Source: a virus (lineage: Duplodnaviria > Heunggongvirae > Uroviricota > Caudoviricetes). From it: DNA of 34,255 nt. The stretch spans positions 1 to 34,255 of IMG/VR virus record IMGVR_UViG_638341087_000014; one strand, given 5' to 3'. Below are positions 7,717 through 34,255 of this stretch, one piece after another (position 1 is the first letter of the stretch; each line of letters opens with the position of its first letter). Position numbers and translations under genes: made by a program. Below the pieces are notes generated by a model, which worked only from the letters and a program-made list of their open reading frames with translations, did no database searches and was not told where the DNA came from.

Positions 7717-8115
7717 ATGATGGAAAAAACAGAAAACAAACCGATTGCAATTGGTGCTGATGCTGCTCCGTTTAAGTTTGAGTTGTCTCAACTGGTGGAG
7801 ATGCGCATCAGTGATGAATGGGGTGAGGTTAAAGCCCGCGCGCAGTATGCGGATGGCGAAAACCAGTACTTGATCCACTACAAGGCAGCTGACGGTCGCG
7901 CCACGACGGAGTGGTTTGGTGAGTCAATGCTGGAAGCAACAGAAGATGATCGTCATCCAGGTTGTCCGGTATTTGCCGGTATGAAATTACCGGAAGGCGC
8001 AGTGGTTGAGCTGCAGCCGGGTGAGATGTTCGTAATGACAGACATCATTGATGGTAAACCGCAGTATTCGCGTATTGAAATGAATGATAAGAGTGCTCGC
8101 CTGATTCGTGAGTAA
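7717..8115 (+). CDS. Hypothetical protein (132 aa), family not recognised
   Basis: Clean ORF with CAGGAGACG before tandem ATGs (7717/7720); no TM or signal peptide; between the lysis cassette and cos. Confidence 0.6.
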   Translation: MMEKTENKPIAIGADAAPFKFELSQLVEMRISDEWGEVKARAQYADGENQYLIHYKAADGRATTEWFGESMLEATEDDRHPGCPVFAGMKLPEGAVVELQPGEMFVMTDIIDGKPQYSRIEMNDKSARLIRE

Positions 8116-8122
8116 CAGGCAT

Positions 8123-8160
8123 TACAGCAGTCCTTCACTCTAAGGGGCTGCTGTAATGTG
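8123..8160 (+). other. Stable hairpin (11-bp perfect stem) just after the 7717-8115 stop
   Basis: CATTACAGCAG ... CTGCTGTAATG inverted repeat; no U-tract on either strand. Confidence 0.4.
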
Positions 8161-8482
8161 AGAAATAAAAAACCGGTCACAGGGAGCAGCTACACAGAAC
8201 CGGCCGGCGAAGACCGCCAATACCACTCATGCATTGATGCAACATACTAATGACAATAGCCGCTATTGATGTAAATGCAACGTTATGCATCAACGAAAAT
8301 AAAAAACCGGCAGGGGAAATCCATTGAAGATTTGCCGGTGGCAAAAGAGGGCCATGTTTTTAACCTTAGTCGCAGAGTTACGGAGTGCAACTACGAATGC
8401 TGCCGGTATATGGCTGAATGGCGTTTCAATGATGTACGTCATCTTATCTGTAAATGTTAATGATAAACGCTCCCATTTGTGC

Positions 8483-8676
8483 GGGTCCTTTCCGGGAGTT
8501 GAAACACCGGGGGTCATAGCACGCGCAAAAACGCGCTATTTATGAAAATTTTTCAGGAAAAAGCATGTCGGTACTTCTCGCGCATAACTATTTGTTTTTT
8601 CTGACATCACATCAGTAAAAGGTCCGACATGAAAACACCCGAAAAAGGACATTTTAAGCGTTTTCATGTCGGACCC
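8483..8676 (+). promoter_or_regulatory. cos site region (cosQ-like, predicted cosN near 8500-8530, cosB-like terminase-binding repeats)
   Basis: GGGTCCTTTCCGG and CGCTATTTATGAAAATTTT are as I recall them flanking lambda cosN; three CATGTCGG-type elements (8564-8574, 8621-8636 inverted, 8660-8675) with a perfect 16-bp inverted repeat, directly upstream of the Nu1-like gene. Confidence 0.6.
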
Positions 8677-8699
8677 TGTATTTGATAGAGAAATGTATT

Positions 8700-9248
8700 G
8701 TGAAAGTTAACAAAAAGAAACTTGCCGAAATTTTCAACGTGGATCCGCGAACGATTGAACGCTGGCAGTCTCAGGGGCTATCTTGCGTCTCCGGAGGTAG
8801 CAAGGGTGTTGAATCTGTGTTTGATACCGCGATGGCAATTCAGTGGTACGCGCAGAGAGAAACTGATATCGAAAACGAAAAGCTCCGCAAAGAACTGGAA
8901 GATTTGCGTGCGGCTGCAGAATCAGATTTACAACCCGGCACCATTGACTATGAACGCTACCGGCTCACCAAAGCACAGGCTGACGCACAGGAGCTGAAAA
9001 ATGCCCGTGAAGAAGGGCTGGTGCTGGAAACGGAATTGTTTACCTTCATTCTGCAACGTGTGGCACAGGAGATTTCGGGGATACTTGTACGTGTGCCGCT
9101 GACATTACAGCGTAAATATCCGGATATTTCACCGTCACACCTTGATGTGGTGAAAACTGAAATCGCGAAAGCCTCCAATGTTGCAGCTAAAGCCGGTGAA
9201 AACGTGGGCAGGTGGATTGATGATTTCAGACGCACAGAAGGCAGCTAA
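8700..9248 (+). CDS. Terminase small subunit (lambda Nu1-like)
   Basis: Strong similarity to lambda Nu1 as I recall it ([59 protein letters not shown]). GTG 8700 chosen by alignment to the lambda N-terminus; track ORF starts at TTG 8682. Confidence 0.9.
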
Positions 9249-11136
9249 TGCAGCCGGTGCGATAGCTACAGGGCTTTTATCTCTCAATATTCCGGTTCCA
9301 CTGACGACGGTTCAGTGGGCTGATCAACATTATTATCTACCGAAAGAATCTTCATACACTCCCGGACAATGGGAAACCCTGCCGTTTCAGGTTGCCATTA
9401 TGAACAGCATGGGAAATGACCGGATCCGCACCGTTAATCTGATTAAATCGGCGCGCGTTGGTTACACCAAAATGCTGTTGGGGGTGGAGGCTTATTTTAT
9501 TGAGCATAAATCCCGTAACAGTCTGCTTTTTCAGCCAACAGATTCTGCGGCAGAAGATTTCATGAAATCTCATGTTGAGCCAACGATCAGGGATGTCCCT
9601 GCATTGCTGGAGCTGGCTCCATGGTTCGGAAGAAAGCACCGCGATAATACACTCACCCTGAAGCGTTTTTCCTCCGGTGTGGGTTTCTGGTGCCTGGGTG
9701 GTGCCGCTGCTAAAAACTACCGTGAAAAATCTGTGGATGTGGTCTGCTATGACGAACTCTCCTCGTTTGAACCGGATGTGGAAAAAGAAGGTTCGCCGAC
9801 GCTGCTTGGTGATAAACGTATCGAAGGTTCGGTATGGCCTAAATCCATACGCGGCTCAACGCCAAAAATCAAAGGTTCCTGTCAGATTGAGAAAGCCGCG
9901 AATGAATCTGCGCATTTCATGCGGTTTTATGTCCCTTGCCCTCATTGCGGGGAGGCCCAGTATCTGAAGTTTGGTGATGATGCGACGCCGTTTGGCCTGA
10001 AATGGGAGAAGGGTAAACCGGAAACGGTGTATTACCTGTGTGAACATAATGGCTGTGTGATCCGGCAGTCGGAACTCGACCAGACCGACGGACGCTGGAT
10101 TTGTGACAATACCGGGATGTGGACGCGCGACGGCCTGGCATTTTACAGCGCCGGTGATGAGGAGATGCCGCCACCGCGCTCCGTCACTTTCCACATCTGG
10201 ACGGCGTACAGTCCGTTCACCACCTGGGTACAGATTGTTTATGACTGGCTGGATGCGCTGAAGGATCCGAACGGCGTCAAGACGTTTATTAACACCACGC
10301 TCGGGGAACCCTATGAAGAGGCTGTGGCGGAAAAACTGAGCTTTGAGTTGTTGCTGGAAAAAGTCTGTCACTATGGTGCGCAGGTTCCCTTGCGGGTGGT
10401 TTACCTGACTGCCGGGATCGACTCCCAGAAAGATCGCTATGAAATTTATGTGTGGGGCTGGGCTCCCGGCGAAGAAGCCTTTCTGATTGATAAGCAAATT
10501 ATCATGGGGCGACCGGAAGACGAGGACACCCTTAAACGTGTTGATACGGTGATCCGGAAAAAATATCGTCATGCTGACGGTACTGAAATTTCCATTTCCC
10601 GTGTCTGCTGGGATACCGGTGGTATCGACCAGGACATTGTGTATCAACGTTCCAGGAAACACGGCACTTTTTTTGTGCTTCCCATAAAAGGGGCATCGGT
10701 GTACGGCAAGCCGGTGATCACCATGCCCAAAAAGCGCAACCAGCGTGGTGTGTTTTTGTGTGAGGTGGGCTCCGATACCGTCAAGGAAATGCTGTACGCC
10801 CGTTTTGCCCTGCCGGTGGTATCTGCCAGTGAAGCCGCCCCGTACACCTTCCGTTTTCCGGATAACCCCGACATTTTTTCGGAAGAAGAGGCGCGTCAGA
10901 TCGTGGCGGAAGAGCTGGTGGAGAAGGTGGTTAATGGCAGGGTGAAACTGCTGTGGGATAAAAAAGGGCGACGCAACGAAGCCCTCGACTGCCTGGTATA
11001 TGCCTATGCTGCCCTGCGTATTTCAGTTCAGCGGTGGCAGCTGGATCTTGAAGCACTGGCCCGTGCCAGAAGAGATGAGCAGGACGACGATGAGATGAGT
11101 CTGGAAGAAATCGCGGCTGCGCTGAGTGGAGGATAA
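9220..11136 (+). CDS. Terminase large subunit (lambda gpA-like)
   Basis: Near-colinear with lambda gpA ([56 protein letters not shown]). ATG 9220 (GGTGG upstream) fits the lambda N-terminal length better than ATG 9178. Confidence 0.95.
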
Positions 11137-11139
11137 AGA

Positions 11140-11349
11140 ATGGTTTATACGCATGAAATGCTTTGTGATGCCCGCCGGGCATTACATGAACTGATGATCG
11201 GACGTGCTGTGGTTTCCGTCAGTAAGGACGGGCGTCAGGTTCAGTATTCGCGGGCGACGATTGGTGAACTGCGTCAGTATATTGAAGAGCTGGAAAGTGC
11301 GCTGGGCGTATCCGGACGGCGTCGCGGCCCGGCAGGAGTGGGGCTGTGA
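11140..11349 (+). CDS. Head-tail joining protein (lambda gpW-like)
   Basis: 69 aa; resembles lambda W (ARRALHELMIGRAVVSVSKDGRQVQYSRATIGELRQYIEELE...RRRGPAG). Confidence 0.85.
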   Translation: MVYTHEMLCDARRALHELMIGRAVVSVSKDGRQVQYSRATIGELRQYIEELESALGVSGRRRGPAGVGL

Positions 11350-12917
11350 ACGGGGAACTGGTGGACCTTCACGGGCAGCCACTGCGGCAGAGTATGGGGT
11401 ATTCCGGAGGGGGTACCGGATTTGGCGGGCAGCTTGCGGAATGGATGCCTGCACCGGAAAGCGCCGATGTGGCGCTCTTACCTTCCATTCAGCTGGGTAA
11501 CGCCCGTGCGGATGATCTGGTCCGCAATAACGGTATTGCCGCAAACGCCGTTGAAATTCATAAAGACCATATCGTCGGACACATGTTTCGTCTGAGTTAC
11601 CGGCCCAACTGGCGCTGGCTGGGGATGTCGGAAGCCGATTCACATGCCTTTATTGAAGATGTGGAGGCGGCGTGGATGGAATTCTGCGATCCGGTGTTTG
11701 GTTCGATGGATGTGGAGGGGCGTCGCTCGTTTACCGAATTTATTCGTGAAGGGGTGGGCGTTCATACATTTAACGGTGAAATTTTTGTCCAGCCCGTATG
11801 GGATACGGAATCCACGTCATTATTCCGGACGAAATTCAAAACCATCAGCCCGAAACGTGTCAGTACACCCGGTTATGGTACCGGCGATCGTTTTATGCGT
11901 GCCGGGGTGGAAATCAACCGGTACGGAAAAGCACTGGCCTACCATGTTCAGGAAGATGACTGGCCCGGTTACGGTGTCAGCAACTGGACGCGGATTGCGG
12001 CGACGCTGCCCTCCGGGCGACCGGGAATGATCCATGTGTTTCAGCCGCAGGAGGACGGGCAGACGCGCGGGGCCAACCAGTTTTATTCTGTCATGGAGCG
12101 CCTCAAGATGCTCGACACACTGCAGGCCACGCAATTGCAGTCGGCGGTGGTGCGGGCGATGTATGCCGCGACGATTGAATCCACGCTGGATTCGGAAAAA
12201 GCATTTGAATATATCGCCGGGGTGGGAGATGGCGGTAAAAATCCCCTGAACACCATCATGAAAGGCTACGCGCGTTATTACGCCACCAATACGGTAAAGC
12301 TGGGCGGGGTCCGTATTCCGCATCTTTATCCGGGGGATTCACTGAATCTGCAGACAGCGCAGAATGCAGATAATGGTTTCTCTGAACTGGAAAAGGCGCT
12401 GTTACGTTACATCGCTGCCGGACTGGGGGTGTCCTATGAACAGCTTTCCCGTGATTATTCACAGGTCAGTTATTCCAGTGCCAGGGCATCCGCCAATGAG
12501 TCGTGGCGGTATTTTATGGGCAAACGAAAATTTGTGGCCAGCCGGCTGGCATCACAGATGTTTGCCTGCTGGCTGGAGGAAGCTCTTATTCGCGGTGTGA
12601 TCCGCCCGCCGAAATCCCGTTTTTCATTCTGGGAGGCCCGTTCCGGATGGTGTCGTGCCGAGTGGATTGGTGCCGGTCGCATGGCGATTGATGGCCTTAA
12701 GGAAGTGCAGGAAGCGGTGATGCGTATTGAAGGTGGTTTAAGCACGTACGAGAAAGAGCTGGCCCTGATGGGCGATGACTATCAGGAGATTTTCCGCCAG
12801 CAACTGCGTGAAAGCCAGGAGCGACAGGCAGCGGGTCTTCCCCGCCCCATCTGGATAAAGGACACGTTTGTGCAGCAGATCCGACAGACAACGGGAGAAA
12901 AAGGCGATGCGTCGTAA
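11346..12917 (+). CDS. Portal protein (lambda gpB-like)
   Basis: 523 aa colinear with lambda B (GGGTGFGGQ, DGQTRGANQFYSVMERLKMLDTLQ, LLRYIAAGLGVSYEQLSRDY); GTG start overlaps the W stop, AGGAG upstream. Confidence 0.95.
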   Translation: MNGELVDLHGQPLRQSMGYSGGGTGFGGQLAEWMPAPESADVALLPSIQLGNARADDLVRNNGIAANAVEIHKDHIVGHMFRLSYRPNWRWLGMSEADSHAFIEDVEAAWMEFCDPVFGSMDVEGRRSFTEFIREGVGVHTFNGEIFVQPVWDTESTSLFRTKFKTISPKRVSTPGYGTGDRFMRAGVEINRYGKALAYHVQEDDWPGYGVSNWTRIAATLPSGRPGMIHVFQPQEDGQTRGANQFYSVMERLKMLDTLQATQLQSAVVRAMYAATIESTLDSEKAFEYIAGVGDGGKNPLNTIMKGYARYYATNTVKLGGVRIPHLYPGDSLNLQTAQNADNGFSELEKALLRYIAAGLGVSYEQLSRDYSQVSYSSARASANESWRYFMGKRKFVASRLASQMFACWLEEALIRGVIRPPKSRFSFWEARSGWCRAEWIGAGRMAIDGLKEVQEAVMRIEGGLSTYEKELALMGDDYQEIFRQQLRESQERQAAGLPRPIWIKDTFVQQIRQTTGEKGDAS

Positions 12918-14523
12918 TTTATCGCATATTGCCGCCATGGCATTTAATGAGCCGCTTTTACTGGAACCCGCCTATGCGCGGGTTTTCTTTTGCGCGCTGG
13001 GTAAAGAGATGGGGGCCGGCAGCCTTGCCGTTCCTCAGCAGGCTGTTCAGCTTGATGCTGATGGTATGCAACTGGCTGTGACTGACTATATGGCGGGCGG
13101 TCAGCGTCCGGCAAAGAGTTACCAGGTGAAGAATGGCATCGCCATTCTGCCGGTGAGCGGCACGCTGGTGCATAAACTGGGTACCCTGCGGCCTTACTCC
13201 GGCATGACTGGCTATGACGGCCTGACGGCCCGCCTTCAGATGGCGGTGAATGATCCGGATGTGCGTGGCATTTTGCTGGATATCGACAGCCCGGGCGGTC
13301 AGGCTGCCGGGGCGTTTGACTGTGCTGACATGATTTACCGTCTGCGGGAACAGAAGCCCGTGTGGGCGCTGTGTAATGACATGGCCTGTTCAGCCGCCAT
13401 GTTGCTGGCGGCAGCCTGTACCCGTCGGCTGGTCACGCAGACGGCAAAAATTGGTTCGATTGGCGTGATGATGGCGCACACCAGTTACGAGAAACAACTG
13501 GCACAGGAAGGGGTGGACATCACGCTGATTTACTCCGGGCAGCACAAGGTTGACGGCAACAGTATTCAGGCATTGCCGGCAGGTGTGCGTGCAGATTTTC
13601 AGCGCCGTATTGATGAGGCCCGCCGGATGTTTGTCGACAAGGTGGCGCTTTATACGGGGCTGAGTTCAGAGGCGGTGATGAATACCGAGGCTGCCGTTTA
13701 TGACGGTCAGGCAGGCATTGATGCAGGCCTGGCTGATCAACTGATTAATGCTGCAGATGCCGTTGAAGTGATGGTTTCTGCACTGAATGACTCTGTTACG
13801 AAGGAGAATGCAATGACTGTTAAAAATCTCACCGTTGCTGAAGCGGTGGCCCAGGAAAATCAGCGCGTGATGGGGATCCTGAATTGTCAGGAGGCGAAAG
13901 GGCGCGAGCAACTGGCGCAAATGCTGGCAGGTCAACCTGGAATGACGGTTGAGCAGGCGAAAACGTTGCTGGCTGCTGCGCCGGTTGCCGGTACTGACAG
14001 CACGGGTGATCAGATTATGGCGCTGCCGGAAGCAAAGGGGCGTGAGCAACTGGCACAGATGCTGGCAGGTCAACCGGGGATGACGGTGGCGCAGGCGAAA
14101 GCGTTTCTGGCGGCAGCCCCTGCTGCCGGTGCTGCAGGCACAGGCGATCAGATTATGGCGTTACCAGAAGCAAAAGGGCGTGAACAACTCGCGCAGGCGC
14201 TGGCTGAACAGCCGGGAATGACCGTTGACCAGGCCAAAACGTTACTGGCAGCGGCACCGGTTGCGGGTTCTGCAAGTGTCGGCGAGCAGATTATGGCGCT
14301 GCCGGAGGCGAAAGGGCGCGAACAACTTGCACAGGCACTGACAGAACAGCCAGGAATGACGGTGGCGCAGGCGAAAACGCTGCTGGCAGCCGCGCCGGCG
14401 GCATCGCAACCGTCACAGGAAACTCTTTTTGATCGCTTTATGGCACAGCATGCTGCCAGTGCGGTTTCCGGTGGCGGAACTGCCGGGCACGGAGAAGAAG
14501 ATCTGCTGATGAGTATGCCGTAA
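12907..14523 (+). CDS. Head maturation protease / scaffold (lambda gpC-Nu3-like, S49 peptidase family) with expanded C-terminal repeat region
   Basis: N-terminus matches lambda C (IAAMAFNEPLLLEPAYARVFFCAL, SPGG, LVTQTAKIGSIGVMMAH); ATG 12907 overlaps the portal end as in lambda. C-terminal part holds 3.7 tandem 46-aa repeats. Confidence 0.9.
   Translation: MRRNLSHIAAMAFNEPLLLEPAYARVFFCALGKEMGAGSLAVPQQAVQLDADGMQLAVTDYMAGGQRPAKSYQVKNGIAILPVSGTLVHKLGTLRPYSGMTGYDGLTARLQMAVNDPDVRGILLDIDSPGGQAAGAFDCADMIYRLREQKPVWALCNDMACSAAMLLAAACTRRLVTQTAKIGSIGVMMAHTSYEKQLAQEGVDITLIYSGQHKVDGNSIQALPAGVRADFQRRIDEARRMFVDKVALYTGLSSEAVMNTEAAVYDGQAGIDAGLADQLINAADAVEVMVSALNDSVTKENAMTVKNLTVAEAVAQENQRVMGILNCQEAKGREQLAQMLAGQPGMTVEQAKTLLAAAPVAGTDSTGDQIMALPEAKGREQLAQMLAGQPGMTVAQAKAFLAAAPAAGAAGTGDQIMALPEAKGREQLAQALAEQPGMTVDQAKTLLAAAPVAGSASVGEQIMALPEAKGREQLAQALTEQPGMTVAQAKTLLAAAPAASQPSQETLFDRFMAQHAASAVSGGGTAGHGEEDLLMSMP
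13891..14400 (+). repeat. In-frame tandem repeat, 138-bp unit, about 3.7 copies, inside the protease/scaffold gene
   Basis: Copies at 13891-14028, 14029-14166, 14167-14304 and a partial fourth, each encoding EAKGREQLAQ(M/A)L(A/T)(G/E)QPGMTV(E/A/D)QAK(T/A)(L/F)LAAAP...GDQIMALP. Confidence 0.9.
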
Positions 14524-14561
14524 GCGATATCCGGAATTCAGATAAATCAGGAGACTGAAAA

Positions 14562-14897
14562 ATGATTAAAACCACCACGGAAAAGCGCGCGAATGTGCAT
14601 ATTTTTGCCGGAAGCGATCCGGCGCATATTGCAACCGCCACCAGTGGTATCAGTGCTGCCACGCCTGCACTGACGCCACTGATGCTGGATGACGCCACCG
14701 GCAAACTGGTGGCATGGGATGGTCAGAAAGCCGGAACGGCAGTGGGCGTGCTGGCTCTGGCGCTTGCCGGAACAGAACCCACACTGACGTACTACAAAAG
14801 CGGTACGTTTGCCACTGAGTCGCTGGTCTGGCCTGACTCTGTGGATGCGGTGAAAAAAGCCAACGCATTTGTGGAAAGTGCCATCAGCCACGCCTGA
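14562..14897 (+). CDS. Head decoration protein (lambda gpD-like)
   Basis: 111 aa; resembles lambda D (SDPAHIATATSG, TPLMLDDATGKLVAWDG, YYKSGTFATESLVWP); CAGGAGA before the ATG. Confidence 0.9.
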   Translation: MIKTTTEKRANVHIFAGSDPAHIATATSGISAATPALTPLMLDDATGKLVAWDGQKAGTAVGVLALALAGTEPTLTYYKSGTFATESLVWPDSVDAVKKANAFVESAISHA

Positions 14898-14921
14898 TGG
14901 TGAAGTGATTGACTGAAAAAA

Positions 14922-14950: not shown

Positions 14951-14966
14951 TGAAGGAAAATAAATT

Positions 14967-15995
14967 ATGGGGTTATTTACCACGCGTCAGTTACTCGGGT
15001 ACACCGAGCAGAAAGTGAAATTTCGTGCGCTGTTTCTGGAGCTGTTCTTTCGTCGCACGATCACTTTCCATACTCAGGAAGTCATGCTGGATAAAATTAC
15101 CGGCAAAACACCGGTTGCGGCGTATGTGTCTCCGGTGGTGTCAGGCAAAGTGCTGCGCAGCCGTGGTGGTGAAACCCGCGTGTTACGTCCCGGTTATGTA
15201 AAACCCAAACACCGCTTTGATTATCAGCAGGCAGTGGAACGTCTTCCGGGGGAAGATCCGGCCCGTCTTAATGACCCGGCCTACCGCCGCCTGCGTATTC
15301 TGACGGACAACCTGAAGCAGGAAGAGCAGGCGATTGTGCAGGTGGAAGAAATGCAGGCGGTCAGTGCCGTTCTGCAGGGTAAGTACACCATGAGCGGGGA
15401 ACAGTTTGAGACGGTGGAAGTGGATTTTGGGCGCTCTGCCACCAATAACATTACTCAGGCTGGCGGCAACAGATGGTCACAGCAGAATGCTGACACCTTT
15501 GATCCAACGCACGATCTGGATGCGTACTGCGATTTTGCCTCCGGGACCATCAATATCGCGATTATGGATGGCACGGTCTGGCGTATGCTGAATGGCTTTA
15601 AGCTTTTCCGTGAAAAACTGGATACCCGTCGTGGTTCAAAATCGGAACTGGAAACCGCGCTGAAAGACCTGGGCTCCGTAGTCTCTTTTAAGGGTTATTA
15701 CGGTGATCTGGCTATTGTGGTGGCGAAAACCGCTTACGTCGATGAAAACGGGGATGAACAGCGTTATCTGCCGGAAGGCACACTGATTCTGGGGAACACT
15801 CAGGCGGAAGGCGTCCGTTGTTATGGTGCCATTCAGGATAATCAGGCACTGAGTGAAGGGATCACCTCTGCGATTCGTTATCCGAAACACTGGTTAGAGG
15901 TGGGGGACCCGGGGTGCGAATATACCATGACGCAGTCTGCGCCGTTGATGGTGCTGCCGGATCCGGATGCGTTTGTGGTGGTTCAGGTGAAATAA
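14967..15995 (+). CDS. Major capsid protein (lambda gpE-like)
   Basis: 342 aa colinear with lambda E (YVSPVVSGKVLRSRGG, PGYVKPKH, VEEMQAVSAVLQGKYTM, RRGSKSELETALKDLG, MTQSAPLM). Confidence 0.95.
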   Translation: MGLFTTRQLLGYTEQKVKFRALFLELFFRRTITFHTQEVMLDKITGKTPVAAYVSPVVSGKVLRSRGGETRVLRPGYVKPKHRFDYQQAVERLPGEDPARLNDPAYRRLRILTDNLKQEEQAIVQVEEMQAVSAVLQGKYTMSGEQFETVEVDFGRSATNNITQAGGNRWSQQNADTFDPTHDLDAYCDFASGTINIAIMDGTVWRMLNGFKLFREKLDTRRGSKSELETALKDLGSVVSFKGYYGDLAIVVAKTAYVDENGDEQRYLPEGTLILGNTQAEGVRCYGAIQDNQALSEGITSAIRYPKHWLEVGDPGCEYTMTQSAPLMVLPDPDAFVVVQVK

Positions 15996-16000
15996 GACGG

Positions 16001-16045: not shown

Positions 16046-16411
16046 ATGACAAAAGAGCAGATGACTGAACGTTTGCAGGAACTGGCAGTGATTCTGGGGC
16101 GTGAAGCAGATATTTCAGGTTCAAAAGCCGATCTTGAGCAGCGCCTGGCGGAATGGGAAGAGGAGGCCGCCGGATTCGATGGGGAGGAGACAGGGAAGGA
16201 AGAGGTGGGCAACGATGCATCCGGCGACGGAATGCATTCTGAGCGGGGACTCGCCCGGGTGCGTATGCTGAAAACGGCGCATATGCCAGCCTGTGATGCT
16301 GTAACGGGAAAAATGTTGATGTTTGCCCGGGCCTCCAGTGTTGTGCTGGTTAATGAAGCCGCAGTTCCTGCGTTGCTGGCGGACGGTCTGGCAGAAAAAA
16401 TCCGGGAGTGA
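16046..16411 (+). CDS. DNA packaging / head completion protein (lambda gpFI-like)
   Basis: N-terminus MTKEQMTERLQEL resembles lambda FI (MTKDELIARLRSL); position after the capsid gene; C-terminal ERGLARV also resembles lambda FI. Confidence 0.7.
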   Translation: MTKEQMTERLQELAVILGREADISGSKADLEQRLAEWEEEAAGFDGEETGKEEVGNDASGDGMHSERGLARVRMLKTAHMPACDAVTGKMLMFARASSVVLVNEAAVPALLADGLAEKIRE

Positions 16412-16815
16412 TGATGTTAGATAATCTGTTCGATCAGGCCATGAGTGATGCGGATGACATCATCCTGGATACGATGGGGACGGAAATCAGCATATATCCG
16501 GGCGGCACGGAAAGAAGAATCCGTGCCGTTTTTGATGCCCCGGCAGAAAACACCGGGATGAACACTGGCAGCGGCGAAATTCGTAATACTGCGCCAGTTT
16601 TATTTACCCGGAGCGCATGGGTTGCCGGACTGAAAAAATATGACAGGGTCATGATCCACGGTGAACCCTATCAGGTAGTCGATCCCGGCTGGGATGAGTC
16701 GGGTACTGCGGGGCATGGTGTGATTACCATTACTCTCGCGCGGGGAGAACCCGGAAGAAGTACGCCTGCCGCCCCTGTCAGACCGAGTAAACGTTATGGC
16801 AGTCAGAGAGCATGA
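16411..16815 (+). CDS. Head-tail connector (lambda gpFII-like)
   Basis: Resembles lambda FII (DNLFDQAMSDADDII..MGT, RAVFDAP, PVLFTRS); start overlaps the FI-like stop (GTGATGATG). Confidence 0.75.
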   Translation: MMLDNLFDQAMSDADDIILDTMGTEISIYPGGTERRIRAVFDAPAENTGMNTGSGEIRNTAPVLFTRSAWVAGLKKYDRVMIHGEPYQVVDPGWDESGTAGHGVITITLARGEPGRSTPAAPVRPSKRYGSQRA

Positions 16816-24888: not shown

Positions 24889-25025
24889 CAGCGATACGGC
24901 GCGCCGGTGCCTGGTTCGGGTGGTCTCCCGGAGATGTGATGGCGCTGCCGTATACGGATTTTGTGGCAATGATGCTGGCGGAGTCGGAAGAGAGGAAGCA
25001 ACGTTATGGCAACGGTGGGCGATAA
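24586..25025 (+). CDS. Tail assembly chaperone frameshift product (P2 gpE+E'-like), -1 frameshift at 24845-24852
   Basis: After the T7-G slip site the -1 frame stays open for 58 codons to TAA 25023-25025, overlapping the tape-measure ATG (25006), the conserved P2-like arrangement. Confidence 0.6.
24845..24852 (+). other. Programmed -1 ribosomal frameshift slippery site (TTTTTTTG)
   Basis: Seven T followed by G in codon context GTT TTT TTG, in the last fifth of the chaperone gene, just before the tape-measure gene. Confidence 0.6.
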
Positions 25026-26658: not shown

Positions 26659-26660
26659 AT

Positions 26661-27149
26661 ATGGTGGATTTGCTGGGCTGGGGCGTAAACCGGCTTGAGC
26701 GTGAAGCATGGGACGCGGTGGGATCATTAACGGATGTCGCCTCCCGCGTCATGCTGTCGTTTGGTGAGTTTGAATTCAGTATTGATACTGCTGCTTATAA
26801 CGCCATGAAGCGCACGATGGAATGGCGATGGGATGAACAACAGCTTATCGGAAAAAACGACCTGCTGCAGTATACCGGCAAGGGGGCCAGAACAATAACC
26901 CTTGAAGGTATGGTGCATGCAGGATTTCGTGACGGTGTGGGAATGGACGCTCTTGATACACTGGTTCAGATGGTGGATGACAATCCGGCCCCGCATCTTC
27001 TGGTCTCGAGCACAGGTGATGTGATGGGGTATTTCGTGGCAACTGCCTATTCAGATAACACCACGTCCTTTCTTCCCGGCGGTGCGCCGAAGAACAAAAC
27101 GTTCACACTGGAGCTGAAATACTATGGCGAAAAACTGGCGGACCACTGA
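26661..27149 (+). CDS. Tail protein U (P2 gpU-like)
   Basis: 163 aa in P2 gpU position; ATG 26661 (GTG 26655 is the alternative used by the ORF track). Confidence 0.8.
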   Translation: MVDLLGWGVNRLEREAWDAVGSLTDVASRVMLSFGEFEFSIDTAAYNAMKRTMEWRWDEQQLIGKNDLLQYTGKGARTITLEGMVHAGFRDGVGMDALDTLVQMVDDNPAPHLLVSSTGDVMGYFVATAYSDNTTSFLPGGAPKNKTFTLELKYYGEKLADH

Positions 27150-27342
27150 CGGCGATATGCTGGATGATATCTGTCAGAGACACTATGGCAGCGCCGGACT
27201 TAACCAGTCACTGGCGGCGGTACTGGAAGCCAATCCCGGACTGGCTGATATTGGTCCGATCTATCCGGCGGGAGTGGAAATCGTGTTGCCGGACTGGGTG
27301 TATGAACCGGAGGAAAAGGAGACGTTTCAGCTATGGGACTGA
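27124..27342 (+). CDS. Tail protein X (P2 gpX-like)
   Basis: 72 aa small ORF between the U- and D-like genes, overlapping both. Confidence 0.75.
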   Translation: MAKNWRTTDGDMLDDICQRHYGSAGLNQSLAAVLEANPGLADIGPIYPAGVEIVLPDWVYEPEEKETFQLWD

Positions 27343-28421
27343 ATGAGTATCAGCCGGATTTCAGCCTGACAGCAGAGGGGGAGGATATCACGAAGGCCAT
27401 AAAGCGGGGGCTGGCTGAACTGCGTTATACCGATAATGGTGCTGCCACAAAGCGCTCCGATGAACTGATGATAACCCTGTTCAGTGAGACGATGGCGCTG
27501 CCACCAAAAGGTGCGGTGTTAACGCTGGGACTGGGATTCAACGGAAACCTGGTCAATAAAGGCAGCTTTACAGTCTGTCAGGTGGCAAGCGGCGGTCCTC
27601 CCCGCCGGATCACCATTTATGCCACCGCAGCCCCCATGAATGCGTCAAAACATGGCGCAGACGTGACCGCACTGAAAACCCGGGCTTTCAGCGATATCAC
27701 ACTGGGCGACCTGGTGAACACCATCGCCACTGAAAATAATCTGGTGGCGCGCGTCTCATCGGTGCTTGCTGATATTCATATCCCGTGGGTGATGCAGTCA
27801 TCAGAATCTGATGCTGCCCTCTTGTCCCGCATTGCAGGTATGTACGGCGCCACCAGTAAACCGACCAATGGCTACTGGTTATTTCTGGAATACGGGGCAT
27901 CACAGAGTACGGGGGGCAGAAATGCGCCTGAGATAACCATTACGCCGGGTATGGTATCAGACTGGGGTTATCGTGAAGGTGAGCGACAGGGCGCTGCGGG
28001 TGGTGCGAAGGGGGATAAAAAGAGCGGGAAAGTTGGGGTCCGGTATTTTGATGCCCGTGACGGACGCACACGTGAAGTTAAAGTTGACGTGGAGTCAACA
28101 GATAAGCGGCATCCGTTTACCCAGCCTGACCAGGGCACCGCAAAACACTGTGCAGAGTCGAAGGTTAAACGTGTGCAGAAAGCCGGACGCCAGATGACGA
28201 TAACGTTGCCCTGCAGGCCGGAACTGCTGAAAGCAGGGGCGGAGATGCGTTTTGTCACGCAGGGATTTGGTGTGCGTGAGGACCATCACTGGCAGGCTGA
28301 GTCTGTGGAGTTTTCACTGGTACCGGGACAGGGATTTACGCTGAATCTGTCACTGACCACGGATATTTCTGCAAAGGGGAAAGCCAGTGGCAAGAAAAAA
28401 GGCGTCAATTATTTTGGTTAA
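27333..28421 (+). CDS. Tail protein D (P2 gpD / late control D-like)
   Basis: 362 aa terminal gene of the P2-like tail operon. Confidence 0.85.
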   Translation: MGLNEYQPDFSLTAEGEDITKAIKRGLAELRYTDNGAATKRSDELMITLFSETMALPPKGAVLTLGLGFNGNLVNKGSFTVCQVASGGPPRRITIYATAAPMNASKHGADVTALKTRAFSDITLGDLVNTIATENNLVARVSSVLADIHIPWVMQSSESDAALLSRIAGMYGATSKPTNGYWLFLEYGASQSTGGRNAPEITITPGMVSDWGYREGERQGAAGGAKGDKKSGKVGVRYFDARDGRTREVKVDVESTDKRHPFTQPDQGTAKHCAESKVKRVQKAGRQMTITLPCRPELLKAGAEMRFVTQGFGVREDHHWQAESVEFSLVPGQGFTLNLSLTTDISAKGKASGKKKGVNYFG

Positions 28422-28445
28422 TGTTTTCTGAATCAGGAAATAAAC

Positions 28446-31400
28446 ATGTCTGTATTAATTTCGGGTGTGCTGACGGATGGCACGGGACTCCCCATGTCCG
28501 GATACCATATTATTCTGAAAGCCCGACAGAATACATCCGCAGTGGTCATGAGAACGGTGGCAACAGTGGTGACGGGGCCGGCCGGAGAATATGCATTTGA
28601 GGCTCAGACCGGAAGATATGACGTTTATCTTCGGTCGTGTATTGAAAGAGAATATTGTGTTGGTGACATTTCGGTTTACGACGATTCAAAGCCCGGCACA
28701 CTGAATGATTTTCTGACCGCTCTCGATGAAGGCGACCTCAAACCCGACGTGGTGAAACGCTTTGAGGAAATGGTGGCACAGGCGCAGCAGAGCGCCGAAG
28801 CCGCAGCGGAAAGCGAGCAGCAGGCCGGGCAACATGTCGCTGATGCGCAACAAATCAAGAGCGACTGCGAGACGCTGGCGGATAACGTACAGCAGAACGC
28901 AGAGGCCGTTACCGAAGATAAAAAGCAGGTGGCACAGCTGGCATCATCTGCCACACAGGATGCCGCCCGGGCAGAACAGGCGGTCAAAGATGCCGATAAG
29001 ATAGTCCAGAAAGCGGTCGATAAACTTGCTGATGCCGCAACGCTGACCGGTGAGGCAAAAGCCAGCGCCGAAGCGGCAGCAAAAAGCGAGCAGAGCGCGA
29101 AACAGCACAGGGACGAGGCGCAACGGATAGTTGATGACCTGAAGGGAACCAACGCCAGCACGACGCAAAAAGGCCTGGTGCAACTCTGTAGTGATACAGA
29201 CAACGACAGCGAAGAACTGGCCGCCACGCCAAAAGCCGTCAAAACCGTCATGGACGAGACGAAAACAAAAGCGCCACTGGACAGCCCGGCATTCATCGGC
29301 ACGCCCACCACACCAACCCCGCCGGACGATGCGACCGGGCTGGAGATGGCGAACGCGGCATTTGTTCGCAAACTGCTTGCTGCGCTGGTTGACTCGTCAC
29401 CGGAAGCCCTGGACACACTGAACGAGCTGGCAGCTGCGCTGGGCAATGACCCGGAGTTTGCGACAACAATCATGAACGCGCTGGCGGGTAAACAACCACT
29501 CAGCGACGTGTTAACCGCAATCAGTAATCTGGAAGAACGGGCAGATAATCTTCTGTGCTTTAATCAGGACGGGAATGCTTCGCTGTCTCCACTGTCAGAA
29601 AAAGCCCGGTCACTGCTGGCACAGGCCACAGTGGAAGCCATGCGCACGGAGCTTGAGCTGAAAAGCGCGGCGGTAAAGGACATTCAGACAGACCTTTACG
29701 ACAGCACGGAAGGCCGTGTTGCGCTACCAGGTGCATTTGGTTACGGAATGACGGACGCCGGAGCAAGTTCAATTATTGCCCGCGATATGGCGACCATAGC
29801 CAAAAGTGCGCATAACCTGCACCCGGGACGGTATTACACCTTTTCCACACAAACGGAAGAGACGACCGGAATAACAGAAATTATCTGGCTGGATAATGGC
29901 TGGGACGACAAAACCAGCCAGACAGCAACAAAGCTGGTTCTGTTTTTTGGAAAAGACGGACGGATCCTTATGACCGTTCGTGGCGATAATATCTCCGCTC
30001 CGGTCACCTGGACGAATCTGACGCCACAACTGGGCAATGCAGCACAGAAGGATGCGCAGGAGAATATTTACGACCGCACCGAAGGCCGACTGGCGATTCC
30101 TGGCATGTTCGGGTTCGGGAAAATATTTGGCCACGAAGACAGAGTAGAGTTCAGAACGCGTTCAGCATTACTGGCGTGGGCAAAAACAGCGAAGCCGGGG
30201 AGGTATCATTGTTTTGGTGACATTAAAGACCTCATTCCAGGTTTGCCACAGATCTACGGGATTATTGAAGTAATCTGGCCCTATGACTCTACAGGAAGCG
30301 CCGTTGAAAATGTTAGCAAAACACTGATTTACAATGCTGGTCGCAACCTTTTTTTAAGTACGTATGTACCTACCGGAGATGGATGGCTTACTGACTGGGA
30401 GAACCTGAAGGTTGATGAGGCCTCACTCAGAGCGCTGATTGAAACCCGCGCACCGCTGAAAAGCCCGGCACTGACCGGAACACCGTCCACGCCAACACCG
30501 CCGGATGATGCAGCAGGTAATGAAATAGCCAATGCGGCGTTTGTCCGCAAACTGCTCGCTGCGCTGGTTGGCTCATCACCGGAAGCTCTCGACACGCTGA
30601 ACGAACTGGCAGCGGCGCTGGGCAATGACCCGAACTTTGCGACAACGGTAACTAAAGCACTGGCAGGTAAACAGCCGCTTAATGACGTGTTAACGGCTGT
30701 CAGCCAGATAACACCGGAAGAAAACACGCTGCCTTATTTCAGTTCAGAGGGCCGGATTTTACTGGCGCAGCTGTCAGAAAAAGCCCGCGCATTACTGGCG
30801 CTGGACACGCCTGAGGCCATGCGCACGGAGCTTGAACTGAAAGCGGCTGCGACGATGGAACCCCAGAGCGATATCCGCGACCGCACACCGGGCAGGCTGG
30901 CACTGTCCGGCATGCATGGATTTGGTCAGGCATTTACCAGCACTGAAGCCCTGGCGTTTGAGGGACTGTCTGATTTCGTTGAATGGCTGAAGAAAGTCAC
31001 GCCGGGGCGGTATGCGGTCAGTATTACTGATTCATCACAACTGCTTACCGGTACCACGCAATTTAACGGCATTATTGACGTGATGTGGTCCCCGTACGCC
31101 AACAGTGAATCTGACACAGTCCGCAAATTTAAAACCCTGATGTGTTACAACCAGTATTATCAGGGTGAACACTGTATTCACTATATGCAGTACCGGTACA
31201 ACGACAGCGATAACAGCTGGAACATGTCATCGCGGGTAGTTGTCTACGACGGAGATTCACTGGCGTACCTGTTGTCCAGGATGGCGGGCTCAGGCTCATA
31301 TTTCAAATACCCGGCAGTGGGTGTTCCGGTGCTGGCTGTTTATCGCGGAACAACTTCCGGGGATAAAGAAATCAAAATTGGCCTGGGTGATGTGGTGCAG

Positions 31401-31586
31401 GGGTCACAACTGGGCGGAGTTAATCTTTCGTGCACAATATCTTCTGCCGGGCCTGGCTCTTACGGTTCAACACCAAGTGCAGGAGCAACAGGGTACACTT
31501 TTCCGGGGCGTTATATGGCGTTATCCGGGGTCAGGGACTCTTACGGAACAAGCGGTCGTATCTGCCTGTTTGTGCGCATCGAGTAA
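28446..31586 (+). CDS. Large tail fibre protein (lambda Stf-type N-terminus, Ala-rich coiled coil, duplicated collar-repeat modules)
   Basis: 1046 aa; prophage tail-fibre-type N-terminus; two copies of the fibre repeat (SPAFIGTPTTPTPPDD...ANAAFVRKLLAAL...LNELAAALGNDP); three TEGR/PGRY-containing distal domains. Confidence 0.85.
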   Translation: MSVLISGVLTDGTGLPMSGYHIILKARQNTSAVVMRTVATVVTGPAGEYAFEAQTGRYDVYLRSCIEREYCVGDISVYDDSKPGTLNDFLTALDEGDLKPDVVKRFEEMVAQAQQSAEAAAESEQQAGQHVADAQQIKSDCETLADNVQQNAEAVTEDKKQVAQLASSATQDAARAEQAVKDADKIVQKAVDKLADAATLTGEAKASAEAAAKSEQSAKQHRDEAQRIVDDLKGTNASTTQKGLVQLCSDTDNDSEELAATPKAVKTVMDETKTKAPLDSPAFIGTPTTPTPPDDATGLEMANAAFVRKLLAALVDSSPEALDTLNELAAALGNDPEFATTIMNALAGKQPLSDVLTAISNLEERADNLLCFNQDGNASLSPLSEKARSLLAQATVEAMRTELELKSAAVKDIQTDLYDSTEGRVALPGAFGYGMTDAGASSIIARDMATIAKSAHNLHPGRYYTFSTQTEETTGITEIIWLDNGWDDKTSQTATKLVLFFGKDGRILMTVRGDNISAPVTWTNLTPQLGNAAQKDAQENIYDRTEGRLAIPGMFGFGKIFGHEDRVEFRTRSALLAWAKTAKPGRYHCFGDIKDLIPGLPQIYGIIEVIWPYDSTGSAVENVSKTLIYNAGRNLFLSTYVPTGDGWLTDWENLKVDEASLRALIETRAPLKSPALTGTPSTPTPPDDAAGNEIANAAFVRKLLAALVGSSPEALDTLNELAAALGNDPNFATTVTKALAGKQPLNDVLTAVSQITPEENTLPYFSSEGRILLAQLSEKARALLALDTPEAMRTELELKAAATMEPQSDIRDRTPGRLALSGMHGFGQAFTSTEALAFEGLSDFVEWLKKVTPGRYAVSITDSSQLLTGTTQFNGIIDVMWSPYANSESDTVRKFKTLMCYNQYYQGEHCIHYMQYRYNDSDNSWNMSSRVVVYDGDSLAYLLSRMAGSGSYFKYPAVGVPVLAVYRGTTSGDKEIKIGLGDVVQGSQLGGVNLSCTISSAGPGSYGSTPSAGATGYTFPGRYMALSGVRDSYGTSGRICLFVRIE

Positions 31587-31599: not shown

Positions 31600-32178
31600 A
31601 TGAAAATCAGAGCGGTAAAAGGCATCAGAAACGCGCATTATCTTGAAAATGGCGCGGTTGACTGCGAGGTGTTATTTGAAGGTGAAACGGAATTCGTCCC
31701 GTATACCGCCATGCAGGATGATACCGCCCCGACAGGCCAGCGCATCTGGGGAGGGTTACAGAGCGGCAAATGGGGTGAAATCGCCCCGTTCAACGTCACG
31801 CCGGAACTTATCGCGGCAGCAAAGGAGGCCAAAAAACGGGAAATCGAGCTCTGGCGCACAGAACAGGAAGCGCAGCCGTTCACGTTTGAATGGAACGGTC
31901 GCACCTGGAATGCTGGCCCAGACTCACTGGCCCGTCTCTATCCGGTGGTAATGGCTGCAAAATCTGATACGGCACGAACCGCCCTTGCGTGGGGCGACGC
32001 TGATAATCAACAGGTGAAACTGTCGATGCAGGAACTTGAAGAACTGGCGGCAGCACTGGCGCAGGCGCAGGTCAATCGCAACGACGAGATTTATCGTCGA
32101 CAGCGGGAGATGAAAGAAGAACTGAATAACTTGGATGATTTGCGCTCAATTAGAGCGATTGCAATTAACAGTAATTAG
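31600..32178 (+). CDS. Tail fibre assembly chaperone (Tfa)
   Basis: 192 aa directly after the large fibre gene; its C-terminal coding sequence is duplicated as a remnant at 33581-33658. Confidence 0.8.
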   Translation: MKIRAVKGIRNAHYLENGAVDCEVLFEGETEFVPYTAMQDDTAPTGQRIWGGLQSGKWGEIAPFNVTPELIAAAKEAKKREIELWRTEQEAQPFTFEWNGRTWNAGPDSLARLYPVVMAAKSDTARTALAWGDADNQQVKLSMQELEELAAALAQAQVNRNDEIYRRQREMKEELNNLDDLRSIRAIAINSN

Positions 32179-32790: not shown

Positions 32791-32802
32791 CTGAAATGGC
32801 CA

Positions 32803-33315
32803 TTATTTATTATCAGGGCATGTTGCATTTGGTTGAATACGTGTTTCGTTTTCTTTAGTTGAAATCATGGCTGCTAATCCAGGCGCAAATTGGCAAGTTC
32901 TACCAACTTGAGTCGATGTATAAACTTTTGTACCTTCTTTGTATGTTAGAGAAACGCCTTCAACAATTGTTTTATCTTTGACTAATGAACCAGCGGCTGC
33001 ACCAAGTGCGGTTCCACCTACAGCCCCTGCGGTGGTTGCCAGTTTCGAACCACTTTTGGTGTTATGTCCAATTACTCCTCCAGCAACGGCACCAACTACA
33101 GCACCGAATGTTTGTGCTGCTTCTTTATTCTCTTTGTTGTCCACAGCAATTTTTGCAGGAAGAACCGAAATGATAGTTATCATTTTGGTTTCTTGTTTGG
33201 AATTAACCTGAGTGGTGTCATAAACATCTGCAGCAAGATGTTCTGCAGTAGACTGACACCCACTTAATACAAAGGCAGCTAATAAAGAAATGGTTGCTTT
33301 ATTTAATTTCAACAT
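32803..33315 (-). CDS. Outer-membrane lipoprotein, SlyB/PCP-like (glycine-zipper)
   Basis: 170 aa; lipobox LSGC; Gly-zipper GAVVGAVAGGVIGH...GAVGGTALGAAAG and overall SlyB-like pattern; AT-rich; 12 bp upstream of the coiled-coil gene on the same strand. Confidence 0.7.
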   Translation of the reverse strand: MLKLNKATISLLAAFVLSGCQSTAEHLAADVYDTTQVNSKQETKMITIISVLPAKIAVDNKENKEAAQTFGAVVGAVAGGVIGHNTKSGSKLATTAGAVGGTALGAAAGSLVKDKTIVEGVSLTYKEGTKVYTSTQVGRTCQFAPGLAAMISTKENETRIQPNATCPDNK

Positions 33316-33580
33316 TTTACTTGCTCTCCTAGTTTCTGAGAAACTGCAAATATATTTACCTGAGCTTTTGTGTCAATATTTTTTTGGTTGTTTTGTTGTC
33401 TTTAATCAAAAAAGTATCCTGCTCATATAGTTCTGTTTAGTGTTTTTATGTTTTTTAATGAATTTTATAAATAGCTGAATTTATTGATATCAATATATAA
33501 ACTTATCGTGCATACATTGCCAAAAATACAGTTTCAGAAGGGGGGCTGGTTGTTGTTGGGGGCAATGTTATCAGTGGGAA

Positions 33581-33658
33581 ATGCAGGATGAACTGAATAA
33601 TCTGGATGATTTACGCTCAATCAGAGAGATGACGATTAGCGGCAATCACGCTCGATAA
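33581..33658 (+). pseudogene. Remnant 3' end of a tail fibre assembly (tfa) gene
   Basis: Encodes MQDELNNLDDLRSIREMTISGNHAR, matching the C-terminus of the Tfa at 31600-32178; 33590-33626 is a near-identical direct repeat of 32119-32155. Confidence 0.5.
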
Positions 33659-33662
33659 AATT

Positions 33663-33688
33663 AACCCCGGTGATCATCCGGGGTTTTG
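33663..33688 (+). terminator. Hairpin terminator between the tfa remnant and the convergent antirepressor-like gene
   Basis: AACCCCGG-TGATCAT-CCGGGGTT stem-loop followed by TTTTG. Confidence 0.55.
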
Positions 33689-33694
33689 CATTCA

Positions 33695-34255
33695 TTAAAA
33701 CCGCATCAACCGTTCCACCAGTTGTTCTTTATGGGCAACGATCCAGCCGCGTTGTTCCAGATAAAATTTGAACCGTTCCAGAGTGCATACCATCGCATCG
33801 GCGGGGACTTTTTCCGTGAACTCGACCTGACCGTGTTTATCGAAGTGGATCAGTAATGCGAATCCATCATTTTTGGTGGCGGAGTTTTGTGCTGCTGGTG
33901 GTTGTTTTTGGCTGAAATAACAGCCTTCGAGTTTTTCGAACACTTCCCACGCCTGATCGGTTTCGAGCATTTTTGCGTGGCGGGCTGCGCCACGTTCTGT
34001 CCAGAGGATGAGGTGCTTTGTACGCGGTGCAACTAAGTTACTTTGAGTAACCTTGTTCTTAAATTCCCGCAACTCAGCTCCTTCCAATTTGAAGTAGTGT
34101 TTCCCACAAACAAAACGCTCGGCATTGCGTGTATAGTTCACTTTGATGTTATTAGTTTCGGTGCCATAAAGTTGTGCCAAAAGCTCGGTAGTAATGACAG
34201 GGATTTGGTTATGGGGGAGCGGGGAAAGAGTTTCAACTGAGATTTGAATAGCCAC
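33695..34255 (-). CDS. Antirepressor-like protein (ORF6N/ORF6C-type), possibly truncated at the window edge
   Basis: 186 aa with an N-terminal region resembling ORF6N-type phage antirepressors; the ORF begins with GTG at the last three bases of the window, so the true start may lie beyond it. Confidence 0.5.
   Translation of the reverse strand: MAIQISVETLSPLPHNQIPVITTELLAQLYGTETNNIKVNYTRNAERFVCGKHYFKLEGAELREFKNKVTQSNLVAPRTKHLILWTERGAARHAKMLETDQAWEVFEKLEGCYFSQKQPPAAQNSATKNDGFALLIHFDKHGQVEFTEKVPADAMVCTLERFKFYLEQRGWIVAHKEQLVERLMRF

Follow-up and report, generated by a model that had tools for sequence, protein, structure and literature searches.

How does a temperate phage of Escherichia coli with the head genes of lambda come to carry a contractile tail resembling that of P2, and how unusual is the combination? 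This question is raised by a stretch of 34,255 nucleotides (nt) from an E. coli prophage (IMG/VR record IMGVR_UViG_638341087_000014), which we analysed at its full length and call the window; it is 99.9% identical to E. coli 52F4 over positions 16000–28500. We put the probability at roughly 85% that the window covers the late region of a temperate lambdoid prophage, integrated at ompW in E. coli, whose virion has a lambda-type head and a contractile tail of the P2/R2-pyocin type. The head/tail combination is real and cleanly modular, yet ordinary: earlier work describes it for other phages, and it is frequent among sequenced E. coli. A first-pass annotation, made from the letters of the window, had assigned all of 8100–34255 to a mosaic virion; this holds for the virion genes but not for the last 2 kb (32245–34255), where accessory genes lie on the minus strand instead.

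Head and tail modules of the virion array

The virion genes form a single array on one strand, and all 27 of its open reading frames (ORFs), from Nu1 to a DUF4376 gene, are intact. As the first-pass annotation had stated, the left part of this array is colinear with lambda, with Nu1, A, W, B, C, D, E, FI and FII in lambda order over 8682–16815 and all Pfam families above cut-off:

8480..8700, no strand assigned: cos region, with a cosB-like part homologous to that of phage 21 (left-end alignment; blastn similarity from 8536)
8700..9248, + strand: Nu1, small terminase (PF07471, 2.7e-82; 94.5% amino-acid (aa) identity to phage 21, 52% to lambda)
9220..11136, + strand: gpA, large terminase with ATPase and nuclease (PF05876 and PF20454; 66% aa identity to lambda)
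11140..11349, + strand: gpW, head-tail adaptor (PF02831, 4e-25)
11394..12917, + strand: gpB, portal of the lambda family (PF05136, 5e-96; 62% aa identity to lambda)
12907..14523, + strand: gpC, S49 protease with a scaffold portion (PF01343)
14562..14897, + strand: gpD, head decoration protein (PF02924, 1e-23)
14967..15995, + strand: gpE, major capsid protein (PF03864, 1.4e-65; 59% aa identity to lambda, 82% to phage 21)
16046..16411, + strand: FI, packaging chaperone (PF14000, phrog_92)
16411..16815, + strand: FII, head-closure protein and tail-docking ring (PF05354, phrog_82; 34% aa identity to lambda FII)

Compared to lambda, the proteins from Nu1 to E are 50 to 66% identical and FII 34% (tblastn), while FI is recognised by profile only, with no BLAST-level match. 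Phage 21 shares 72 to 82% nt identity with the window in three blocks over 8536–16164 (77% for the head genes, and up to 94.5% at the protein level), but the FI of the window diverges after codon 40. With E-values of 1e-13 to 1e-96, chance is ruled out for the gene assignments. The cos-Nu1-A-W-B-C-D-E module would build a gpD-decorated capsid of the lambda type, closed by gpW and the FII ring. As a separate observation, the gpC gene contains a 138-nt tandem repeat (3.7 copies with 79% matches at 13890–14398, Tandem Repeats Finder) in its C-terminal scaffold-like part, owing to which gpC has 538 aa compared to 439 aa in lambda.

Right of the head genes, the first-pass annotation had placed a complete P2-like contractile-tail module in the order V-W-J-I-H-G-sheath-tube-E/E'-T-U-X-D. 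This order is present exactly, on the + strand at 18065–28421, though it is not strictly that of P2, since X is relocated:

18065..18688, + strand: gpV, baseplate spike (27% aa identity to P2 V, E 3e-16; phrog_9992)
18723..19079, + strand: gpW, gp25-like sheath initiator (PF04965; 39% aa identity to P2 W)
19054..19968, + strand: gpJ, baseplate wedge (PF04865; 41% aa identity to P2 J; PA0618, 1.3e-54)
19961..20551, + strand: gpI, baseplate wedge (PF09684, 2e-35)
20548..21933, + strand: gpH-type baseplate tail fibre (PF12571 at the N-terminus; C-terminal part 52% aa identical to P2 H; 95% nt identity to phiP27 L54)
21936..22481, + strand: gpG, tail-fibre assembly protein (PF02413; 37% aa identity to P2 G, 93% to phiP27 L55)
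22536..24011, + strand: tail sheath, 491 aa (PF04984, PF17482, PF22671; PA0622, 1.6e-52; ~35–37% aa identity to P2 FI)
24008..24526, + strand: tail tube (PF04985, 2e-23)
24586..25025, + strand: gpE chaperone (stop of E at 24888) and its predicted −1 frameshift extension E' (PF10109)
25006..26658, + strand: tape measure protein, 550 aa (several tape-measure PHROGs; PGAP name in 52F4)
26661..27149, + strand: gpU (PF06995, 1e-27)
27124..27342, + strand: gpX (PF05489, 1e-18; 44% aa identity to P2 X)
27333..28421, + strand: gpD, baseplate hub (32–38% aa identity to P2 D, E ~1e-28; pyocin R2 6u5h_C, 4e-17)

The assignment of these genes to the P2 type was confirmed, with P2 homologues found for V, W, J, I, H, G, FI, FII, U, X and D at 22 to 52% aa identity (tblastn, E 3e-4 to 1e-82). 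The Pfam families matched include the P2-named Tail_P2_I, Phage_P2_GpU, Phage_tail_X and Phage_tube (FII) as well as the sheath domains. At the chaperone gene, a slippery T TTT TTG lies at 24846–24852 and the −1 frame has no stop for 58 codons, up to 25025, overlapping the start of T at 25006; this layout is the same as in the E/E+E' annotation of P2 and predicts a frameshift chaperone of the P2 type. Spike V, wedge proteins W, J and I, fibres H with their chaperone G, sheath, tube, E/E', tape measure and a U-X-D hub would together make up a contractile tail.

The module is not completely P2-like, however: R, S and ogr have no detectable homologue, and a gpZ-like and a PA0615-like protein stand in the place of R and S. 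With every P2 protein used as tblastn query, neither the P2 head nor its lysis, R, S, L, ogr, int or replication genes matched the window, which thus lacks the Q-P-O-N-M-L head, Ogr operons, replication and immunity of the P2 family (Peduoviridae). The blocks V-W-J-I-H-G and FI-FII-E-T-U-D do follow P2, but in that phage X adjoins L, V comes after R and S, and the array is broken up by orf30 and fun(Z), whereas the window has none of these interruptions, places X between U and D, and has its terminator directly before V. The sheath is also ~95 aa longer than in P2 and the tape measure shorter (550 aa compared to 815 aa), and the head is not of the P2 type.

A closer fit in organisation is the R2 pyocin of Pseudomonas aeruginosa (PA0615–PA0628). 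Among solved structures, its proteins are the nearest to the terminator, J and the sheath (PA0615, PA0618 and PA0622, respectively) as well as to the hub, its locus tags ascend in the gene order of the window, and its cluster has the order U-X-D as in the window. Unlike the window with its full head and cos region, the R2 pyocin has no head genes, packaging genes or gpZ-like gene. The tail is therefore homologous to that of P2 but distant, and its organisation fits the R2 pyocin and the WO phages of Wolbachia (see below) better than P2. Within the sheath, residues 149–487 alone align with the 386-aa sheath of the R2 pyocin (PA0622), and the ~110 extra N-proximal residues probably form an additional surface domain. 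An ORF on the minus strand at 22490–23035 overlaps the start of the sheath gene, has no family match and was treated as spurious.

The neck genes and the module junction

Between FII and V, the first-pass annotation had left two completion genes unassigned. Both are present, but PHROG, hhalign and fold comparisons point to an identity for each:

16796..17518, + strand: predicted divergent tail-completion protein of the lambda gpZ family, with an arginine-rich insertion (phrog_27, 8e-26)
17530..18081, + strand: predicted tail terminator or collar protein, like PA0615 of the R2 pyocin and of gpU fold (profile match to PA0615 in 6u5f, E 6e-4)

The first of these proteins matches phrog_27 (“tail completion or Neck1”), which lambda gpZ itself matches at 3e-69, while P2 R and S belong to other PHROGs. 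A full-database profile search with it collected 185 relatives, many of ~185 aa, aligned over two matched stretches around the arginine-rich insertion. Among the aligned members of this family, 34 of 71 match Pfam PF06763 (Minor_tail_Z), and hhalign of the broad family alignment against a lambda gpZ alignment gave 98% probability (E 2.7e-13). Because of the shared PHROG, the Minor_tail_Z matches within the family and the hhalign result, we read the product of 16796–17518 as a putative divergent gpZ-family protein at the lambda position, by a remote link.

The second protein belongs to phrog_1072, and its AlphaFold2 (AF2) model has a predicted local distance difference test (pLDDT) score of 76. 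The best Foldseek matches of this model are the R2 collar (2.6e-7), the Mu terminator (8.6e-7), T5 p142 and lambda gpU. Together with the PA0615 profile match, these fold matches to the R2 collar and to the Mu, T5 and lambda terminators identify the product as a tail terminator, as judged from the model. P2 R, which is the terminator of that phage (phrog_65), and P2 S (phrog_26) have no tblastn match in the window and were negative in hhalign, as was an alignment of the terminator family against P2 R.

With a Z-like gene and a terminator after FII, colinearity with lambda therefore extends past FII, and similarities to lambda and phage 21 now comprise the Nu1-to-FII order, the cosB-like region, a gpZ-family gene and a gpU-fold terminator at lambda positions, and a fibre of the Stf type. 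The earlier statement that no lambda tail genes follow FII thus stands for U, V, G, T, H, M, L, K, I and J but not for Z, of which 16796–17518 appears to encode a family member. None of lambda U, V, G, T, H, M, L, K, I, J or lom matches the window (E <= 0.01 for U to J), so that a remote gpZ homologue and a terminator of gpU fold are all that it has of the non-contractile lambda tail, and this terminator is closer to those of myoviruses. FII, the Z-like gene, the terminator gene and V directly adjoin or overlap one another, and neither regulator nor lysis genes separate them. The tail module would thus supply its own neck parts, a gpZ-family completion protein and a gpU-fold terminator, and the latter would dock on the FII ring like gpU does in lambda.

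Where head and tail modules meet can be read from natural swap partners. Nucleotide similarity to phage 21 runs from 8536 in the cos region to 16164 inside FI, and the blastn similarity of the head module to a prophage of E. coli NS-NP030 (L008; NZ_AP024126, 2068770–2088933; integrated at potB) ends at the same position. This prophage is 90.1% identical over 8101–16164, with Nu1 to E at 89 to 98% aa identity, and continues after 16164 with FI'-FII-Z-U-V-G-T-H-M-L-K-I-J-lom-stf-tfa, a true lambda tail. Conversely, the viral contig L031 (IMGVR_UViG_2917403263_000003, 2101–9286) is 88.5 to 88.9% identical in nucleotides from 16730, at the 3' end of FII, to the end of its locus at or beyond 26237, and its lysis region is 92% identical to that of the window. 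Its head is different and of the Gifsy type: the terminase is of the gpA type, the portal belongs to the lambda family, ClpP and capsid are fused, and, besides a cement protein, the contig has an FII-family protein of its own. Because NS-NP030 shares the head but not the tail and L031 the tail but not the head, the boundaries are placed at 16164 and 16730: the head module spans ~8100–16164, a linker zone 16164–16730, and the tail module starts at ~16730. The junction thus lies between the interior of FI and the 3' end of FII and not at 16800–18100 as first proposed, and both formerly unassigned genes belong to the tail module because the similarity shared with L031 starts at 16730. The GC profile has no step between head and tail. 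We also considered a shared right-hand flank with NS-NP030, but the Stf N-terminus is only 44% identical there, so no recent common joint exists at that end.

Head type and tail order vary in a set of 80 viral contigs that each encode a terminator relative, and every pairing of the two was found there:

lambda D/E head with P2 tail order: 33 contigs
lambda D/E head with Chris1 tail order: 2 contigs
other head with P2 tail order: 11 contigs
other head with Chris1 tail order: 26 contigs

The FII-family ring would be the common interface that allows head and tail modules to swap in nature. With one head on two tails and one tail on two heads, the locus is an unusually clean natural case of phage modular evolution, and joints confined to a 570-nt zone suggest that the FII-family ring, with the gpZ-like protein and the terminator supplied by the tail, forms the interface at which heads and tails are exchanged. 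This could be of use for engineering chimeric phages and for retargeting lambda-packaged cosmids with contractile tails. It changes no concept, since lambda/P2 chimeras and lambdoid myoviruses were known before.

Lambdoid setting, relatives and alternative readings

The description of the phage as a lambdoid-regulated myovirus stands in outline, with a Q-like gene, tRNA genes and a lysis cassette upstream of the virion array and a lambdoid early region in 52F4:

2356..2922, + strand: Q-like late antiterminator, DUF1133/Phage_antitermQ (Pfam PF06576, 1e-104; PF06530, 29.2 bits with a cut-off of 26)
6245..7348, + strand: lysis cassette of two holins and an M15 endolysin (Pfam PF16931, PF05449, PF13539)

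A predicted Q-like gene ahead of the lysis and virion genes and a gene order fitting one late operon give this region a lambdoid layout. The early region of the 52F4 prophage, upstream of the window, carries int-xis, an exonuclease gene, dicB, ydaT (YdaT) and replication genes, and a LexA-family repressor gene adjoins cro; divergent cI/cro, a replication region and int-xis at the prophage end are thus all found in 52F4, outside the window. The prophage ends there at a split ompW gene, with attR in ompW, and its size of ~48 kb (by arithmetic from record coordinates) fits a lambda-sized head.

Along the virion array, the gaps E|FI, V|W, G|sheath and tube|E measure 34 to 59 nt and therefore leave no space for P2-type activator-dependent promoters. 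GC-rich hairpins with T runs lie on the + strand at 14919–14943 (D|E), 15999–16019 (E|FI), 18687–18705 (V|W), 22500–22517 (G|sheath) and 24545–24562 (tube|E). Since a Q-like gene lies upstream, hairpins occupy the gaps and ogr is missing, a single antiterminated late transcript is the simplest reading. It would be antiterminated by Q and pass several internal hairpin terminators, with no Ogr-activated operons as in P2. The hairpins at 18687 and 22500 flank the W-J-I-H-G block, which is placed elsewhere in the phages Chris1 and yong2.

SfV and phiP27 had been suggested as comparators and do resemble the window in combining lambdoid regulation with a contractile tail, but their annotated tail order is Mu-like and their head genes are not of the lambda type. 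They have no similarity to the head or core tail proteins of the window at E <= 1e-3 apart from a 45-residue stretch of V, and we rejected both as relatives of these modules. Likeness to phiP27 is found in the region downstream of Q and the lysis region (92–93% nt identity, with 93% for the lysis cassette), in the C-terminus of H and in G (95–96% nt), in the Stf N-terminus (65% aa) and in the DUF4376 protein (76% aa). In a megablast search of a phage collection, the tail region matched by its fibre segments only, and no close tail has been deposited. The nearest deposited tails are those of Hafnia phage yong2 and Citrobacter phage Chris1, with 61 to 63% aa identity in the sheath, 42 to 63% in the Z-like protein, terminator and V, ~40 to 60% in most tail proteins, and weaker or undetected similarity in H and G. 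Both share lambdoid early and late genes with the window, but a ClpP-type protease gene replaces C/D/E and their order is V-sheath-tube-E-T-U-X-D-W-J-I-H-G. Exactly the architecture of the window, including the lambda D/E head, is found in E. coli phage vB_EcoM-705R4 (GenBank) at 26 to 62% aa identity; unlike the window, none of Chris1, yong2 and vB_EcoM-705R4 has a fibre of the Stf type.

The architecture also has precedents in the literature. In Wolbachia WO phages and the Xylella phages XfP1 and XfP2, a lambda-like terminase, portal and minor capsid protein C are joined to a P2-like baseplate and tail, and the gene table of WORiC lists a minor tail protein Z before V and the order tape measure protein-U-X-D (PMC3235987). 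The window matches these published lambda/P2 chimeras in architecture, as judged by description and gene table (PMC3235987). Their hosts are others, namely an alphaproteobacterial endosymbiont and Xylella. We know of no report of a lambdoid Q-type late region for the WO or Xylella chimeras.

Of 5426 complete E. coli genomes, ~72–75 contain the tail or the junction region to 80% or more of its length. The head and tail arrangement is kept in ~70 of them, down to ~85–92% identity, and recurs in a second lineage at 26 to 62% aa identity; the prophage is annotated in RefSeq genomes. Because lambda/P2 chimeras are published, ~70 complete E. coli genomes carry the prophage and GenBank holds similar architectures, the arrangement is ordinary and not new; it is not a one-off mosaic but established and widespread, in E. 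coli genomes, viral contigs and published chimeras alike. A literature search found no paper on this E. coli lineage, nothing usable on the ompW site, and no micrographs of the lineage or of its closest relatives Chris1 and yong2.

The same data bear on other explanations of the locus. Head and tail genes might not build one infectious virion if the tail were a domesticated R-type tailocin or the prophage defective, and the terminator-to-D order does follow PA0615, PA0618 and PA0622, with the closest solved structures all from the R2 pyocin. In addition, DUF968 is broken into two ORFs in the window, an ISEc12 element sits between tRNA region and holins in 52F4, and the related vB_EcoM-705R4 appears to carry a split D gene. 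We nevertheless regard this as unlikely, given that 27 of 27 virion ORFs are intact, that terminase, portal, protease, D and E lie intact directly upstream of the tail in the same array, and that FII, the Z-like gene, the terminator gene and V form a tight series with no separate regulator or lysis genes. The arrangement has moreover persisted in ~70 E. coli genomes and a second lineage, and a ~48 kb prophage suits a lambda-sized head. A single recent recombination at 16800–18100 between a lambdoid prophage and a resident P2-like one would explain why the head is 77% identical to phage 21 in nucleotides but no deposited phage matches the tail at the nucleotide level, and why the tail proteins are homologous to those of P2. 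Such a one-off hybrid is very improbable, because the tail is only 22 to 52% identical to P2 with R, S, L and ogr unmatched, the same architecture occurs across lineages 26 to 62% aa identical in both modules and is published for WO and Xylella (PMC3235987), and the mapped boundaries are 16164 and 16730 with no GC step between modules. That the tail is instead of the Mu/SfV type, as is usual for lambdoid myoviruses, could be argued from Chris1 and yong2, which place sheath-tube-...-D before W-J-I-H in a Mu-like order, and from the Mu terminator being the third-best fold match of the window terminator. Against this stand the lack of head or core-tail matches to SfV and phiP27 outside 45 residues of V, the P2 homologues of eleven tail proteins, the matches to P2-named Pfam families and the P2-style T TTT TTG site of E/E', which leave it scarcely credible.

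A lambda-type head with a P2/R2-pyocin-type contractile tail in a lambdoid prophage is thus the preferred reading, and several observations weigh against it. The link to gpZ is remote: BLAST with lambda proteins gave no match, the protein encoded at 16796–17518 itself misses PF06763, and its narrow alignment (orf240) gave no hhalign signal against lambda gpZ, P2 R, P2 S or the gpZ alignment, so that the link emerged only once the family had been widened by the full-database profile search. The AF2 model of this protein is poor (pLDDT 60) and Foldseek returned nothing below E = 1, and we therefore used no fold evidence for it. At the cosN position, 12 bases differ from the lambda/phage 21 cohesive end GGGCGGCGACCT although the cosB-like part aligns well, and the cohesive end may be different from that of lambda and phage 21. 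Promoters and terminators were called by consensus scan only. Individual copies may be defective, since DUF968 is split in the window and 52F4 carries an insertion sequence. Finally, contractility and infectivity are read from the genes, and no particle has been seen.

The Stf-type fibre and flanking genes

Two fibre systems are encoded, one of the P2 H type and one of the lambda Stf type. The latter follows D:

28446..31586, + strand: lambda Stf-type long fibre, 1046 aa, with an N-terminal collar domain (PF08400, 3e-55; 45% aa identity to the lambda Stf N-terminus)
31600..32178, + strand: DUF4376 protein, probable partner of the Stf-type fibre (PF14301, phrog_1141; 76% aa identity to phiP27 L57)

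The fibre gene starts 24 nt after D, and its attachment domain comprises the N-terminal 123–134 residues, with matches to Stf of Ur-lambda (PDB 9e7m, 1.5e-17) and to the XM1 collar spike (7kjk_A3, 1.2e-7). In Ur-lambda, twelve copies of Stf encircle the bare tube at the gpV/gpM junction (PMC12617516), while in Vibrio myophage XM1 the collar spike is bound to the neck, at the rings of head closure and terminator (PMC10457771). Since a sheath is expected to cover a junction of the gpV/gpM type and the XM1 domain binds the neck, we tentatively propose by analogy that the virion could bear six H-type baseplate fibres and, redeployed to the neck on the FII/terminator rings, Stf fibres; this placement is doubtful. 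The gene seems to be in use and not a relic, because the D-Stf junction is kept in ~70 E. coli genomes and because the same two fibre sets (L54/L55 and L56/L57) occur together in phiP27, a myovirus of the Mu type. A conserved Stf-type fibre on a contractile-tailed phage is the most interesting remainder of this locus. The fibre also has an internal duplication, in which residues ~275–396 resemble ~666–785.

Upstream of the virion array, the window carries a split DUF968 gene, RusA, the DUF1133 protein, a DNA methylase, four tRNAs, a TerB-domain gene, the holins and the endolysin. The two DUF968 ORFs (821–1690 and 1724–1987) correspond to one intact 348-aa gene in 52F4, and the split may be a frameshift or pseudogene in this copy. 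The ISEc12 of the 52F4 late region is absent from the window. In the stretch 4684–6180, after the Q-like gene and the methylase, genes for tRNA-Met, -Arg, -Thr and -Gly are followed by the TerB-domain gene; at the equivalent position, phiP27 has tRNAs plus stx2e, whereas the window has no toxin gene though its flanks are 92 to 93% identical to phiP27. At the right end, 32245–34255 on the minus strand is a low-GC (41–43%) accessory cassette encoding DUF5384, glycine-zipper/TraT-like and ORF6N-domain proteins. These are probably lysogenic-conversion genes outside the virion module, and the cassette contains a near-consensus sigma-70 promoter (TTGACA-16-TATATT) at 33376–33349.

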